NCBI RefSeq assembly: GCF_003019035.1
Contig: NZ_CP027447.1
Strand: one strand, 5' to 3'
DNA: 64,000 nt
Source: Escherichia coli
GTDB taxonomy: Bacteria; Pseudomonadota; Gammaproteobacteria; Enterobacterales; Enterobacteriaceae
Shown here: positions 2 to 6,078 of the stretch, in pieces
Numbering within the stretch: position 1 is the first letter of the stretch
How the letters are laid out: each line of letters begins with the position of its first letter
Made by a program: the position numbers and the translations under genes
Notes under the pieces: model-generated
What the model saw: the letters and a program-made list of their open reading frames with translations, nothing else
What the model was told of the DNA's origin: nothing
Database searches by the model: none

Positions 2-250
2 CTGTACTTTTACCCCGGCCCGGAATCCGAACCTATTCTGGCCGCGGCTGAATCGTCGTTCAGGAAGTGGCTGGCTGAGCAGGGGCTTATCGGTCAGGAC
101 GTGGCGTTGTCCGCCATTGCTGCCGCACTGCATGTGCACGGTGTGCAACGCGTGGAGATAATCGAACCCACACAGAATATGGCCATCAGCGACATACAGG
201 CGGCGCGCTGTGAGTCATTCACCATCAGCGAAGGTGGGCGCAATGAGTAA
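2..250 (+). CDS. P2-like baseplate assembly protein J, C-terminal fragment (truncated by window start)
   Basis: Open frame from window edge to TAA at 248-250, overlapping the start of the downstream gpI-like gene; position immediately upstream of I-H as in P2 V-W-J-I-H order. Confidence 0.5.
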   Translation: MYFYPGPESEPILAAAESSFRKWLAEQGLIGQDVALSAIAAALHVHGVQRVEIIEPTQNMAISDIQAARCESFTISEGGRNE

Positions 251-851
251 TTCGTTGTTACCACCATCAGCCAGCAATTTCATGCGTTGTGCCGAAGCCG
301 TCGGAACACGCATTACAGACATTCCGGTAGACCTCAACACGCTGTGGTCGCCGGACACCTGCCCGGTGCATCTGCTGCCTTATCTCGCCTGGGCGTTTTC
401 CGTTGACCGCTGGGATCGCAACTGGCCGGAAGAGACAAAGCGACAGGTGATTCGTGATGCATGGCTGATACACCGACACAAAGGGACCATCAGCGCACTG
501 CGAAGAGCCGTGGAGCCTCTCGGCTACCTGATTGAAGTAAAGGAGTGGTGGCAACTCAACGAGGAGCCGGGAACATTTCGCATTGTTGTCGGAGTACTTG
601 ATCAGGGCATCACCGATGAAATGTATCAGGAACTTGAGCGCCTTATTGCGGATGCAAAACCAGTAAGTCGCCATCTGACAGGGCTGGCGATCAGCCTGAG
701 TGTGAACGGAAAGATTTTCGTTGGTACGGGATGCTATCACGGCGATGCCCTGACGGTTTATCCCTACACCCCGGAGTCCATTATTGTCGAAGGGGATTAT
801 TTCCCTGCCCCGGCCATTCATTTAATTGATAATCTGAGAGTAAACGCATGA
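243..851 (+). CDS. P2-like baseplate/tail protein I
   Basis: ORF track 210..851 (GTG); more likely ATG at 243 (MSNSLLPP...). Lies between J and tail fibre H; stop overlaps H start (ATGA). Confidence 0.6.
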   Translation: MSNSLLPPSASNFMRCAEAVGTRITDIPVDLNTLWSPDTCPVHLLPYLAWAFSVDRWDRNWPEETKRQVIRDAWLIHRHKGTISALRRAVEPLGYLIEVKEWWQLNEEPGTFRIVVGVLDQGITDEMYQELERLIADAKPVSRHLTGLAISLSVNGKIFVGTGCYHGDALTVYPYTPESIIVEGDYFPAPAIHLIDNLRVNA

Positions 852-2353
852 CAGTGAAATACTACGCCATTCTGACTAATCAGGGCGCGGCACGACTGGC
901 TAACGCGACGATGCTCGGCAGTAAGCTGAATCTGACGCAAATGGCCGTTGGTGATGCAAATGGTGTGTTACCAACACCAGACCCTGCACAAACAAAACTG
1001 ATTAACCAGAAACGCATTGCACCGCTGAATCTTCTGAGTGTTGACCCTAACAATCAGAGCCAGATTATTGCGGAACAAATCATCCCTGAAAACGAGGGAG
1101 GATTCTGGATCCGTGAGATTGGTCTTTATGATGATGAAGGCGTACTTATTGCGGTGGCAAACTGCCCGGAAACGTACAAACCGCAGTTGCAGGAAGGCAG
1201 TGGACGCACCCAGACTATCCGCATGATTCTGGTTGTCACGAACACCGAAGCCATCACGCTGAAAATCGACCCGTCAGTGGTTCTGGCAACCCGCAAATAT
1301 GTGGATGATAAAATCTCAGAGCACGAACAGTCACGACGTCACCCGGACGCCTCGCTGACCGTAAAAGGTTTTACTCAGTTAAGCAGTGCAATTAACAGTG
1401 AATCAGAAACACTGGCCGCAACACCGAAAGCGGTTAAGGCTGCATATGACCTGGCTAACAGGAAATATACCGCCCAGAACGCCACCACTACACAAAAAGG
1501 GATTGTTCAGCTCAGTAGCGCCACGAACAGCACGTCTGAAACGCTGGCAGCGACACCAAAAGCTGTTAAGGCGGTAATGGATGAAACGAACAAGAAAGCA
1601 CCATTAAACAGCCCGGCACTGACCGGAACGCCAACAACACCAACAGCGCCACAGGGGACTAATAATACCCAGATCGCAAGCACGGCTTTCGTTATGGCTG
1701 CGATTGCCGCACTTGTAGATTCGTCCCCTGATGCACTGAACACGCTGAACGAACTGGCTGCGGCGCTGGGCAATGACCCGAACTTTGCGACTACCATGAC
1801 TAACGCGCTTGCGGGTAAGCAATCGAAGGATGCCACCCTGACGGCGCTGGCGGAGCTTGCTACATCAGCAGATAAACTCCCATATTTTACAGGGGCAGAT
1901 CGTGCCGCGTTAACCGCGTTGACAAGTGTTGGACGTGCCATTCTTGGTAAAACCAGCACTCAGGGAGTTCTTGATTACCTTGGTTTGGGGGAAGGCTCTG
2001 CGCTGCCCGTTGGTGTACCTGTTCCATGGCCCTCAGCCACACCGCCAACGGGGTGGCTAAAATGTAACGGAGCAGCATTTTCTTCTGAAAAATACCCCAA
2101 ACTGGCAAAGGCTTACCCAACGTTAAAATTACCGGATTTACGGGGTGAGTTTATCCGTGGCTGGGATGATGGGCGCGGGATTGATGCGGGACGTACCCTG
2201 CTTTCTGGGCAGGATGGTACAAGTTTTTCTCATTACGGAGGTAATTTCGACATTGGGTCTGGTCATTCAATCAATAACTATGACCAAATTGTTTCTAACC
2301 AACCAGGCTTTTCCCGTTTTTCATTTGCGGGCCTTCACGAGGTGATGGGTTAA
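848..2353 (+). CDS. Phage tail fibre protein (P2 gpH-like), constant N-terminal part fused to currently attached variable C-terminal cassette A
   Basis: 501-aa ORF with Ala/Thr-rich repeats typical of tail fibres; C-terminal region begins with the block LGLGEGSALPVGVPVPWPSATPPTGWLKCNGAAFSSEKYPKLAKAYPTLKLPDLRGEFIRGWDDGRG that recurs in five other cassettes. Confidence 0.8.
   Translation: MTVKYYAILTNQGAARLANATMLGSKLNLTQMAVGDANGVLPTPDPAQTKLINQKRIAPLNLLSVDPNNQSQIIAEQIIPENEGGFWIREIGLYDDEGVLIAVANCPETYKPQLQEGSGRTQTIRMILVVTNTEAITLKIDPSVVLATRKYVDDKISEHEQSRRHPDASLTVKGFTQLSSAINSESETLAATPKAVKAAYDLANRKYTAQNATTTQKGIVQLSSATNSTSETLAATPKAVKAVMDETNKKAPLNSPALTGTPTTPTAPQGTNNTQIASTAFVMAAIAALVDSSPDALNTLNELAAALGNDPNFATTMTNALAGKQSKDATLTALAELATSADKLPYFTGADRAALTALTSVGRAILGKTSTQGVLDYLGLGEGSALPVGVPVPWPSATPPTGWLKCNGAAFSSEKYPKLAKAYPTLKLPDLRGEFIRGWDDGRGIDAGRTLLSGQDGTSFSHYGGNFDIGSGHSINNYDQIVSNQPGFSRFSFAGLHEVMG
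1376..1573 (+). repeat. In-frame tandem 44-codon repeat inside the tail fibre gene (QLSSA-NS-SETLAATPKAVKA motif twice)
   Basis: Motif at 1376.. and again at 1508.. (132 nt apart) in the H reading frame. Confidence 0.6.
1968..1993. other. Invertase crossover site 1 (hix/gix/cix-like), + orientation, inside H at constant/variable junction
   Basis: Sequence ...ACC TT GGTTTGGGGGAAGG... (core TT ~1980-1981) repeated at five other places; resembles the AAACC-NN-GGTTT architecture of Hin/Gin/Cin/Pin sites. Confidence 0.6.
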
Positions 2354-2404
2354 TTATGTAACCATTCGTCCTCGTAATATTGCGTTTAATTACATCGTAA
2401 GGGC

Positions 2405-2430
2405 AGCATAAAAACGTTGGTTTGGGGAAG
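2405..2430. other. Invertase crossover site 2, + orientation (variant with GGGG instead of GGGGG)
   Basis: CATAAAAACG TT GGTTTGGGGAAGG at 2408-2430, immediately after the conserved cassette end RPRNIAFNYIVRAA-stop. Confidence 0.55.
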
Positions 2431-2897
2431 GCTCTGCGCTGCCCGTTGGTGTACCTGTTCCATGGCCCTTAGAAACACCGCCAACGGGGTGGCTAAAATG
2501 TAACGGAGCAGCATTTTCTTCTGAAAAGTACCCCAAGCTGGCAAAAGCCTACCCCACCAATAAATTACCGGATTTACGGGGTGAATTTATTCGTGGCTGG
2601 GATGATGGGCGAGGAATTGATGCAGCACGCGCTTTATTGAGCATTCAAACCGGGATGTTGGAAAAACACCGCCATATTGTTGTAGCTAACGATGGATATG
2701 ACACAAAGGATGAATGGGAGTTGGCCACGATTTTCAAAAAAACATATACACAAGGCAGGGGGCTTGATGCCACAAATACAGGAGGGAGTTTGATTCCATC
2801 ACCAACGCTTCATTCACGAGGAAGTATTGGTAACACAGGTGGTAGTGAAACCCGCCCCCGCAATATTGCATTTAACTATATCGTGAGGGCGGCTTAG
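2421..2897 (+). other. Promoterless tail-fibre C-terminal cassette B (silent, + orientation)
   Basis: Frame beginning FGEGSALPVGVPVPWPLETPPTGWLKCNGAAFSSEKYPKLAKAYPTNKLPDLRGEFIRGWDDGRG... ending ...ETRPRNIAFNYIVRAA-stop at 2897; no start codon at its 5' end (ORF track only picks internal Met at 2637). Confidence 0.6.
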
Positions 2898-2903
2898 TTA
2901 TAT

Positions 2904-3515
2904 TCAACTGGCTGCTGCCAGTGGTATTTCCGGCCAGTTGATATCTGATGCCATGTTTATATCCATTGCGTTCAGTGCGTCTATATAATCCAGCACGGCG
3001 TTAAGCCGGGTGGTTTCTGCCTGCGTCAACTTCCGCCCGGCCCGCAACTTCAACTGAATCAGACTAATGGAAGCCATTGCAGTATCAATCAGCGACTGGC
3101 GCTGTGTTTCTGCCGCTTCTACTGCGGCGCTATGCTGTGCCTCGGTATCCGTCACCCATTTTTCACCATCCCATTTATCGTATGGTGTTAACGGGGCGAT
3201 AGTGGTTGTATTTTTCGGGTAGTCACCCAGCGTCGTGATTTCTTCGGTGTTTCCCGTATCAGTGCTATAGACGGTTTCACCACGATGATCTGGCGTATAC
3301 TCCCATGAATTTAAATTCTCCGAACGGCGGATAGCATAGCCCGCTTTATGTGCGCCCGGGGCATCTAAACAGGAATTTGCCGGAATACCGACACCCGCAG
3401 CAAGATATTCAGTTGATTCGGAAATATATTCCCGTGTCTCACCATCATAGTTATAAACGACGATGTTTCCTGCCTGTACGGCAATAAGGTCATCATTTAA
3501 TATCGCGTTATTCAT
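2904..3515 (-). CDS. Tail fibre assembly protein (Tfa / P2 gpG-like chaperone)
   Basis: 203-aa ORF immediately downstream (minus strand) of cassette C with ATGA overlap; position and size as for tfa genes following tail fibre variable segments. Confidence 0.6.
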   Translation of the reverse strand: MNNAILNDDLIAVQAGNIVVYNYDGETREYISESTEYLAAGVGIPANSCLDAPGAHKAGYAIRRSENLNSWEYTPDHRGETVYSTDTGNTEEITTLGDYPKNTTTIAPLTPYDKWDGEKWVTDTEAQHSAAVEAAETQRQSLIDTAMASISLIQLKLRAGRKLTQAETTRLNAVLDYIDALNAMDINMASDINWPEIPLAAAS

Positions 3516-3973
3516 TATGCGGTTCTCACAATATAATTGAAGGCAATATTGCGTGGGCGGGTTTCATTCCCCTCTGAGGATTCCGTTCTGTATTGACTGG
3601 TAAATCTACCGTTAATTGCACCTTGCCGGACGGCGTTATCTGTCGACAACAGACTATCCCCTCCTTTGTCATTTGGCACCAGTACCGTGTTATCCCACGC
3701 ATCCCATGACCGAATATTATGATAATGACTTCCTGTTAACCACCCCTGCATGCTTAAGATGCCCCTTCCGGCATCCACCCCGCGCCCATCATCCCAGCCA
3801 CGAATAAATTCACCCCGTAAATCCGGTAATTTTAACGTTGGGTAAGCCTTTGCCAGTTTTGGATACTTTTCAGAAGAAAATGCTGCTCCGTTACATTTTA
3901 GCCACCCAGTTGGCGGCGTGGCTGAGGGCCATGGAACGGGCACACCAACGGGCAGCGCAGAGCCTTCCCCCAA
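3515..3973 (-). other. Tail-fibre C-terminal cassette C (silent, inverted), followed by tfa
   Basis: Begins with conserved GEGSALPVGVPVPWPSATPPTGWLKCNGAAF... block, ends ...ETRPRNIAFNYIVRTA; starts at crossover site, no ATG. Confidence 0.6.
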
Positions 3974-3990
3974 ACCAACGTTTTCATGCT
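3965..3990. other. Invertase crossover site 3, inverted orientation
   Basis: CCTTCCCCCAAACC AA CGTTTTCATG on + strand (reverse complement of site consensus). Confidence 0.55.
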
Positions 3991-4451
3991 GCCCTTACGA
4001 TGTAATTAAACGCAATGTTATGGGGGCGTGTTTCAGATGCTGTGCGAACTGAGCGAGAGGCGTCGAATGTCCATACAGAAGCACCATATCCTTCAATGAT
4101 CTCAGTTGGTTGTAAGCCTACTGATAATATAGAGTCAGTTTGACTAAATGGTCCTGAATTAAACGCATCTTTAAAAAGCTGAGTACGCCCAAAAGTGCCA
4201 ACTATATTCTGAATAGCGTCAGACTGTGCAGACAGTAGGTTGCGCCCATTATCAACGCCCCGTCCGTCATCCCAGCCGCGAATAAATTCGCCCCGTAAAT
4301 CCGGTAATTTATTGGTGGAGTAGGCCTTTGCCAGATTGGGGTACATTTCAGAAGAAAATGCTGCGCCGTTACATTTCAGCCACCCCGTTGGCGGCGTGGC
4401 TGAGGGCCATGGAACGGGCACACCAACGGGCAGCGCAGAGCCTTCCCCCAA
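3984..4451 (-). other. Tail-fibre C-terminal cassette D (silent, inverted)
   Basis: Same conserved N-terminal block and C-terminal ...ETRPHNIAFNYIVRAA; distinct variable middle. Confidence 0.6.
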
Positions 4452-4468
4452 ACCAACGTTTTTATGCC
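4443..4468. other. Invertase crossover site 4, inverted orientation
   Basis: CCTTCCCCCAAACC AA CGTTTTTATG on + strand. Confidence 0.55.
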
Positions 4469-4890
4469 GCCCTTACGATGTAATTAAATGCGATATTTCG
4501 CGGCCTGACAGCAACAAAATTTATACCATCACCTACAGAGTTACTGGTGAAATTAAATCGTGAAAATCCTGGCTGATTTCCGACGATGCCATCATGAAAA
4601 TTAATTGCGTGCCCCGCACCATCACCTATATTTCCGGCACGCTGAGAAAAATTTGTAGCCTCTTGGCTGCTTAATAATGCTCGCCCATTGTCCACACCTC
4701 GTCCATCATCCCAACCTCGAATAAATTCGCCCCGTAGATCCGGCAATTTATTGGTGGGGTAAACCTTTGCCAGATTTGGGTACTTTTCAGAAGAAAATGC
4801 TGCTCCGTTACATTTCAGCCACCCCGTTGGCGGTGTGGCTGAGGGCCATGGAACAGGTACACCAACGGGCAGCGCAGAGCCTTCCCCCAA
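4462..4890 (-). other. Tail-fibre C-terminal cassette E (silent, inverted)
   Basis: Conserved N block; variable part ...GHAINFHDGIVGNQPGFSRFNF... is paralogous to attached cassette A; ends ...RPRNIAFNYIVRAA. Confidence 0.6.
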
Positions 4891-4907
4891 ACCAACGTTT
4901 TCATGCG
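4882..4907. other. Invertase crossover site 5, inverted orientation
   Basis: CTTCCCCCAAACC AA CGTTTTCATG on + strand. Confidence 0.55.
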
Positions 4908-5410
4908 GCTCTTACGATGTAATTAAACGCAATGTTACGAGGACGGTTTTCGTTTGCAGTTGGAACAATTCTTGAAGCATCAAGGCCAATCACTTTTGGG
5001 TAAACAGCGCCATCTGTTCTTTCTGTCACCATACTTCTGACTAAGGAGAAATAACTATTGTTCGTTGAGGGGCTCAAAGGCACTACTGCCCCCTTAAACG
5101 AACCTACTGATTCCCATATTGAATAATTTTCGGTGTTTACAGTCTTGAACTCACCATAGATATTACGTATGGCATCGCCCTGAGCGGATAATATTGCCCT
5201 CCCCGTATCCATACCACGTCCGTCATCCCAGCCACGAATAAATTCACCCCGTAAATCCGGTAATTTTAACGTTGGGTAAGCCTTTGCCAGTTTTGGATAC
5301 TTTTCAGAAGAAAATGCTGCTCCGTTACATTTTAGCCACCCAGTTGGCGGCGTGGCTGAGGGCCACGGAACGGGCACACCAACGGGCAGTGCAGAGCCTT
5401 CCCCCAAACC
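4901..5410 (-). other. Tail-fibre C-terminal cassette F (silent, inverted)
   Basis: Conserved N block and ...NRPRNIAFNYIVRAA end; ORF track extends it to 5464 by 17 fortuitous codons outside the crossover site. Confidence 0.55.
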
Positions 5411-5424
5411 AACGTTTTCGTTTT
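5399..5424. other. Invertase crossover site 6, inverted orientation (right boundary of invertible region)
   Basis: CCTTCCCCCAAACC AA CGTTTTCG on + strand, ~55 bp upstream of the invertase start. Confidence 0.55.
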
Positions 5425-5478
5425 TATCCCTACCTATACCAACTATGTATTTTTCACGAAACAAAGAGGATGTTTTTT

Positions 5479-6078
5479 ATGCAAATTGGCTATATTCGTG
5501 TGTCAACAAATGACCAGAACACGGATTTACAACGCAATGCACTGAACTGCGCAGGATGTGAACTGATTTTTGAAGATAAAATCAGCGGAACGAAATCAGC
5601 CAGACCGGGATTGAAAAAACTGCTCAGAACGCTATCAGAAGGAGATACGCTGGTTGTCTGGAAGCTGGACAGACTGGGCAGAAGTATGAAACACCTGATT
5701 ACGCTTATTGAGGAATTGCGGGAAAAAGGTGTTAATTTCCGTAGTCTGACGGACAGCATTGACACATCAACACCCATGGGGCGTTTCTTTTTTCACGTCA
5801 TGGGGGCTTTAGCCGAAATGGAACGTGAATTAATTGTAGAGCGTACACTGGCCGGACTGGCAGCAGCACGCGCACAAGGACGCATTGGCGGACGTCGCCC
5901 GAAGTTGACAAAAGAACAACACGAGCAAATAGCGAGGCTGATTAAAAACGGTCATGACAGGAAACAACTGGCGATCATTTACGACATCGGCATATCGACG
6001 ATTTATCGTTATCACCCTGTAGGCGATATACAGGCTGAAGAAACAACCAGGCAGACTCAGGAAAATGAAAACCGCTAA
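5479..6078 (+). CDS. Serine DNA invertase (Hin/Gin/Cin/Pin family site-specific recombinase)
   Basis: MQIGYIRVSTNDQNTDLQRNAL... with catalytic-serine resolvase/invertase N-terminal domain and C-terminal HTH (GISTIYRY); SD AAGAGGA before ATG 5479. ORF-track N-terminal extension from 5272 is the reverse complement of cassette F. Confidence 0.9.
   Translation: MQIGYIRVSTNDQNTDLQRNALNCAGCELIFEDKISGTKSARPGLKKLLRTLSEGDTLVVWKLDRLGRSMKHLITLIEELREKGVNFRSLTDSIDTSTPMGRFFFHVMGALAEMERELIVERTLAGLAAARAQGRIGGRRPKLTKEQHEQIARLIKNGHDRKQLAIIYDIGISTIYRYHPVGDIQAEETTRQTQENENR

Follow-up and report, generated by a model that had tools for sequence, protein, structure and literature searches.

Are two similar motifs in the shaft of a prophage tail fibre a recombination substrate that lengthens and shortens the fibre, or are they copies of a protein repeat whose DNA has drifted too far apart for that? 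The question is raised by a fibre gene near the beginning of a 64,000-nt stretch of Escherichia coli DNA (hereafter the window). A preliminary description of the window had picked out two motifs 132 nt apart in this gene and had taken them for a 44-codon, in-frame tandem repeat in the tail-fibre shaft, of a kind that can mediate variation in fibre length by recombination. The answer depends on what the motifs are, on how much DNA identity they still share, and on what has happened to the corresponding units in related phages and prophages.

The fibre gene belongs to a P2-like E. coli prophage. A gpI-like gene lies directly upstream and overlaps the start of H (Table 1), while a gene for tail-fibre assembly (PF02413) is found near the fibre gene, at 2904-3515. 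This order at the locus, namely baseplate I, fibre H and fibre assembly, is that of a fibre of the P2 gpH type. The Pfam content of the 501-aa protein comprises PF12571, two stretches of PF03406 and PF07484, and the last of these, the collar domain, marks the beginning of the fibre's exchangeable distal portion; each of the alternative cassettes described further below carries a PF07484-type domain as well. Within E. coli, the gene is best matched by the fibre gene of a prophage in strain E2348/69, which is 97.5% identical over the full length. In that homologous prophage, the counterpart of the gpI-like gene is annotated as "phage tail protein I," and the region as a whole is annotated as P2-type, with a terminase small subunit gpM, tail protein X, equivalents of baseplate V/W/J, a tape measure and GpE.

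Table 1. Positions of the fibre gene, its domains and its repeat units in the window
Feature	Position	Strand	Remarks
gpI-like baseplate protein gene	210..851	+	ORF; Pfam PF09684 Tail_P2_I, E 4.2e-53
P2 gpH-type tail-fibre gene	848..2353	+	501 aa ORF; houses the repeat
Fibre N-terminal domain, aa 1-150	848..1297	+	Pfam PF12571 "phage tail-collar fibre protein, N-terminal", E 1.9e-62
Repeat unit 1, aa 169-212, SLTVKGFTQLSSAINSESETLAATPKAVKAAYDLANRKYTAQNA	1352..1483	+	repeat HMM; one of two PF03406 stretches
Core of unit 1, 22 residues, QLSSAINSESETLAATPKAVKA	1376..1441	+	first motif of the preliminary description
CTGGC in core 1, unit positions 61-65	1412..1416	+	partner 1544-1548 in core 2; interval of the putative L083 exchange
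Repeat unit 2, aa 213-256, TTTQKGIVQLSSATNSTSETLAATPKAVKAVMDETNKKAPLNSP	1484..1615	+	best PF03406 stretch, aa 213-253; repeat HMM
Core of unit 2, 22 residues, QLSSATNSTSETLAATPKAVKA	1508..1573	+	second motif of the preliminary description
Phage tail collar domain, aa 389-436	2012..2155	+	Pfam PF07484, E 5.1e-15

The two motifs had been located accurately. Each begins with a CAG (Q) codon in the frame of the fibre ORF, the two codons are spaced by 132 nt and hence by 44 codons, the second motif ends exactly where it had been said to end, and both fall within the shaft, between the PF12571 domain and the collar domain. At the level of protein, the two 22-residue motifs are identical at 20 of 22 positions. 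Similarity also reaches well beyond these cores, running from KG(F/I) to N(R/K)K (KGFTQLSS...AVKAAYDLANRK against KGIVQLSS...AVKAVMDETNKK, with 25/34 residues identical), and the true repeat units are 44 residues each and directly adjoin one another. Together, the two units score 143.1 bits against PF03406, where the cut-off is 22 (E 1.7e-42, in two stretches). Both align with the model from one end to the other, and the best stretch covers positions 1-41 of the 42 in the model. Each motif very probably forms the core of one PF03406 "phage tail fibre repeat" unit, the two units being neighbours in the proximal part of the shaft of a P2 gpH-type fibre. Considering that Ala, Ser and Thr abound in the shaft and that the DNA similarity between the copies is modest, one might also think of a chance or low-complexity match without biological meaning, but such a reading is so improbable that it was rejected. 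The PF03406 score speaks against it, as does the near-identity of the cores at an exact 44-codon spacing. Moreover, when the ORF is compared with itself, an offset of 132 gives the best agreement (49/66 nt, the next best having 36/66; z = 7.4), standing about 7-8 standard deviations above all of the others, and the units are conserved in P2, in phage P88 and in dozens of prophages, with one copy in protein S of Mu.

The repeat itself is already known. The family PF03406 (Phage_fiber_2) has long been catalogued, and its domain was first recognised in Stf, the side tail fibre of lambda (PMC3368898). Mu protein S contains its one copy at residues 97-150, and the fibre of P2 itself, gpH (AAD03286.1), has two. 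The P2 units occupy almost the same positions as those of the window and are near-identical to them in sequence. The two proteins also have a common proximal order, in which an N-terminal domain is followed by two 44-residue units and then by the shaft segment from NSPALTGTPTTPT, and in P2, as in the window, H is preceded by a gpI-like gene. The N-terminal domain of the window fibre (ORF nt 1-465), on the other hand, belongs to a lineage other than that of P2. Because the PF03406 repeat is of such long standing and is carried by P2's own fibre, the finding is an ordinary one; the preliminary description had not recognised the motifs as this repeat. The window instance shows no feature that would distinguish it within the family, and its importance goes little beyond correct annotation.

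It is in the DNA that the description as a tandem repeat breaks down, although the 44-codon period and the two PF03406 stretches uphold it for the protein. Tandem Repeats Finder, when run on 848-2353, reported no repeat with a period of 132, only one with a 9-nt period at 1627-1645, and the reading as a DNA-level tandem repeat was dropped on that account. In self-BLAST of the ORF, the sole off-diagonal match was 38 nt long at 84% identity (1403-1440 against 1535-1572). When the whole 132-nt units are compared, 78 of 132 positions are identical (59%), and the longest in-register exact run is 8 nt. The extended nucleotide identity that would be looked for between recombining copies is, by core identity, self-BLAST and longest run, essentially absent here, which is the outcome that the preliminary description had named as one that would refute it. 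Nor does the identity between these adjacent copies go beyond the level imposed by the protein. The cores are identical at 48/66 nt (73%), while 44.5 ± 3.1 would be expected from the amino acids alone when codons are drawn independently from the gene's own usage for both amino-acid sequences; there is no excess (p = 0.18), and only 8 of the 20 identical core residues use the same codon.

Since the residues are near-identical and yet the synonymous sites differ as much as they would between codons drawn independently, the duplication is old, and it is selection on the protein that keeps the copies alike. For RecA-dependent exchange in E. coli, a perfectly identical stretch of ~20-30 bp is required, and divergence lowers the rate strongly. 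The copies in 848-2353 being so diverged, with a longest exact run of only 8 nt, they would make a poor substrate for recombination. Because they share too little DNA for homologous exchange to occur often, the window gene would effectively be stable at two copies, as in P2, where the longest exact DNA run shared by the copies is 20 nt, against 8 nt in the window pair.

The family as a whole tells of more movement. To compare copy number across related prophages, as the preliminary description had proposed, 80 related loci were taken from IMG/VR, and units were counted with an HMM for which the two copies of the window had served as the basis. The resulting survey covers 60 H genes, with those of the window, P2 and P88 included, and several of the genes are cut by contig ends, so that their counts are lower bounds. 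Copy number was found to vary from 1 to 5: a single copy was counted in 6 genes, two copies in 35, three in 13, four in 5 and five in 1. The differences among the 60 genes are always in frame and always amount to whole multiples of 44 codons (or of 56 codons, in a subtype taken up below).

The arrays also follow a regular layout. The head SLT.KGF is always found on the first unit and the tail VMDETNKKAPLNSP on the last one, and the internal junctions are all formed by the linker AAYDLANGKYTAQDA-TTARKG. Expressed in layout codes, 30 genes have S:y44 followed by T:M; one further T:y44 unit is present in 5 genes and two further ones in 1, and 5 one-copy genes have the layout S:M. In the one-copy genes (L052 and others), a P2-type copy-1 head is joined straight to a copy-2 tail, while in genes with three or four copies the middle ones consist of a copy-2 head joined to a copy-1 tail. 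P2-like prophage fibres thus vary by whole units with clean in-frame junctions, and these junctions are the ones that unequal exchange within the conserved core should produce. Units would be gained and lost by such exchange.

Some duplications within arrays are recent. In L019, copies 2 and 3 are identical at 132/132 nt, the same is true of copies 2 and 4 in L064, and in L017 an exact run of 105 nt is common to copies 1 and 2. The fibre of phage P88 (Xuanwuvirus; AIZ95147.1, with three copies) and the alleles L016 and L017 resemble the window gene in the repeat, in its 44-codon period and in the flanking shaft, but they have one or two extra internal units, each made up of a copy-2 head and a copy-1 tail. 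Neighbouring copies in these three fibres have exact DNA runs of 45-105 nt, and they would therefore be better recombination substrates than the window pair. Among the closest relatives of the window gene, the count is constant: the 13 closest IMG/VR alleles, at 98-99% identity, have two copies in 13/13 cases. When the segment 1290-1720 was used as a query, 383 complete genomes matched it with at least 80% query coverage, and five near-identical matches, among those listed, were collinear with it and so have two copies each.

A three-copy array was encountered in a gene otherwise very similar to that of the window. The protein P0001 is encoded on L083, an 824-nt contig (ABKEKD010000263.1) from the draft assembly GCA_027991525.1, and its DNA is 97.5% identical to the window on either side of the array. 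The three-copy junction reads GAAACGCTGGCCGCAACACCG. Through unit position 65, the middle copy equals the allele's own copy 3, which is of the window copy-2 type; from position 61 to the end, with the whole 66-nt second half included, it equals its own copy 1, which is of the window copy-1 type. The informative sites that flank the exchange are unit positions 60 and 66. Because the middle copy switches between its copy-3 and copy-1 matches across positions 61-65, the exchange can be placed in the CTGGC of the core, and the middle copy is an exact chimera, probably produced by unequal exchange inside the array. The 25 best complete-genome matches to L083 all align as two pieces over a span of 692 nt (824 - 132), so that each of those 25 genomes has two copies, and the three-copy form was not found among the best matches listed when 5,426 complete E. 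coli genomes were searched. The three-copy allele is either rare or an assembly artefact; an artefact is conceivable because the contig is a short draft one and has no complete-genome counterpart among the listed best matches.

Another source of change can be seen in the H gene of the window, which, to judge from its closest matches, is a three-part mosaic. The first part, ORF nt 1-465, is 98% identical to phage 500465-2 and 95.5% identical to pro483. The second, nt 451-1048, contains the shaft with both repeats and has 87.8% DNA identity to gene H of P2, and the third, nt 1012-1506, shows 89% identity to vB_EcoM-673R5, a phage with a genome of 95 kb. The first of the mosaic junctions is situated just upstream of the repeats, inside the conserved YVDDKI.EHEQSRRHPDASLT segment. 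In P0014, the N-terminal domain of the window (identical to about residue 170) is combined with a three-copy array of the P88/L017 type. Many E. coli matches to 1290-1720, furthermore, start or stop at the repeat core, at query positions 114-117, 205-206 and 283-285. From this hybrid and from these match ends, it would seem that whole arrays are also exchanged between phages, by way of conserved flanks.

By which of these routes, then, might the number of units change? It could be supposed that the copies in 848-2353 are themselves an active recombination substrate, yielding longer or shorter fibres at appreciable frequency in the lysogen or phage population. The span of 1-5 copies in the family, with junctions of the unequal-exchange type, agrees with such activity, and so does the three-copy L083, a close allele whose exchange maps inside the core. 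The window pair, however, has an 8-nt exact run at best and a core identity no greater than its amino acids impose, and Tandem Repeats Finder sees no period-132 repeat in it; two copies are the rule in all 13 of the closest alleles and in the 25 best complete-genome matches to L083, which is itself a short draft contig. We consider an active substrate at this locus quite improbable. The proposal of recombination-driven length variation thus holds for the family over evolutionary time, with its range of copy numbers and its junctions, but not for this pair.

A stronger contender, although still a doubtful one, is that copy-number differences come mainly from the swapping of whole shaft segments via conserved flanks, with unequal crossing-over playing a minor part and the cores acting as mosaic joints. 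The three-part composition of the H gene (500465-2, P2 and vB_EcoM-673R5) is in keeping with this, as are the pairing of domain and array in P0014 and the many matches that begin or end at the repeat core. It accounts less well for the fully identical copies within L019 and L064 and for the L083 chimera, which are signs of exchange within the array and not of import, or for the one-copy genes, which are precisely a P2-type copy-1 head with a copy-2 tail. Of course, segment swapping and intra-array exchange are compatible with each other, and both probably operate. The reading preferred here remains that of two PF03406 units, old as a pair in the window gene, in a family in which units would come and go through unequal exchange within the core.

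As for what a unit does, each one could be a structural module of the trimeric shaft, in which case copy number would set the length of the proximal fibre. That one unit adds a fixed length is something we infer: a monomer model made with AlphaFold2 for residues 1-345, on the basis of a 44-sequence alignment, was confident for the N-terminal domain alone, with pLDDT <50 over residues 141-311, the repeats included. The PDB was searched by sequence, once for the full-length protein and once for the repeat region by itself, and the repeat matched entries of Mu protein S only (5YVQ, 9KI1 and 8JU3). In 9KI1, an in-situ structure of Mu, gp49 is modelled at its N-terminus only, and the authors cite a crystal structure of the gp49 C-terminus; in a listing of 2021, PF03406 stood among the repeat families without known structure. 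The EPcl proteins, fibres of other E. coli prophages, offer another instance of shaft repeats, in this case collagen-like and coiled-coil ones, with lengths that vary among relatives by multiples of 3 residues in the former and of 7 in the latter, and some EPcl proteins include a PF03406 (Pf2) unit (PMC3368898). The periods of 3 or 7 residues differ from the 44 residues of the window repeat, and the fold classes differ too.

It is conceivable that the PF03406 core works more generally as a frame-preserving joint, at which P2-, Mu-, P1- and lambda-like fibres gain or lose 44-residue modules, even via a microhomology of 5 nt such as the CTGGC of L083, and that fibre length is adaptively tuned in this way to the thickness of the O-antigen or capsule. 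This larger idea is speculative and, on balance, rather unlikely. If it were true, copy number would be under selection as a trait of host range and not a matter of neutral drift. In practical terms, the addition or removal of 44-residue units by engineers of P2 or tailocin fibres would probably be feasible.

A subtype of the repeat with a period of 56 residues was observed in L021, L022, L048 and L057-L066, where up to 5 copies were seen. Its linker is longer and has an added segment, ...AAGKAP(V/S)SHTHPWNQITGVPxASLT.KG..., and in L021 and L022 units of 44 and 56 residues are mixed within one array. Among the best 120 homologues of window 1240-1790, most are annotated as "partial," and about half of these are on contigs of less than 1 kb. 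It seems that assemblies from short reads are interrupted within the repeat region or next to it, which makes copy numbers from draft genomes unreliable; such numbers, together with entries for a "partial tail fiber protein," call for caution.

Further along the window, the fadJ-fadI-sixA stretch (35000-39500) is 100% identical to E. coli SCU-301. Window 1-30000 was compared with the 16 kb that, under a collinear arrangement, would lie next to this stretch in SCU-301, and there was no match and no corresponding prophage DNA in those 16 kb; gene order or insertion here seems to differ from that in SCU-301. At its 3′ end, the expressed H frame is cut short by two single-base deletions, at ~2328 and at 2346-2349, relative to the E2348/69 gene (521 aa). 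The protein ends in ...FSFAGLHEVMG at the stop codon, without the conserved end ...RPRNIxFNYIVRAA that is present in every alternative cassette, and the truncation reflects either a genuine mutation that inactivates the gene or an error in sequencing.

The distal, receptor-binding part of the window fibre is not P2-like. It consists of a collar-domain cassette, of which several alternative copies lie beside a gene for a serine recombinase (5479-6078, with the resolvase/invertase domains PF00239 and PF02796). Repeats of ~210-240 nt (GLGEGSALPVGVPVPWP...) occur on the plus strand at 1972-2212 and 2410-2648 and in inverted orientation at 3747-3986, 4224-4462, 4663-4903 and 5190-5418. Four minus-strand cassettes, each with a tail-collar domain, are found at 3515-3973, 3984-4451, 4462-4890 and 4901-5464, and the tail-fibre assembly gene mentioned above is the only one beside them. 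In the P2 record, by comparison, G is annotated straight after H without such cassettes, while the homologous prophage of E2348/69 has fewer of them than the window. The region 1972-6078 holds several alternative distal fibre ends, and its arrangement suggests a multiple-inversion host-range switch, which would be of the kind represented by the Min system of plasmid p15B.
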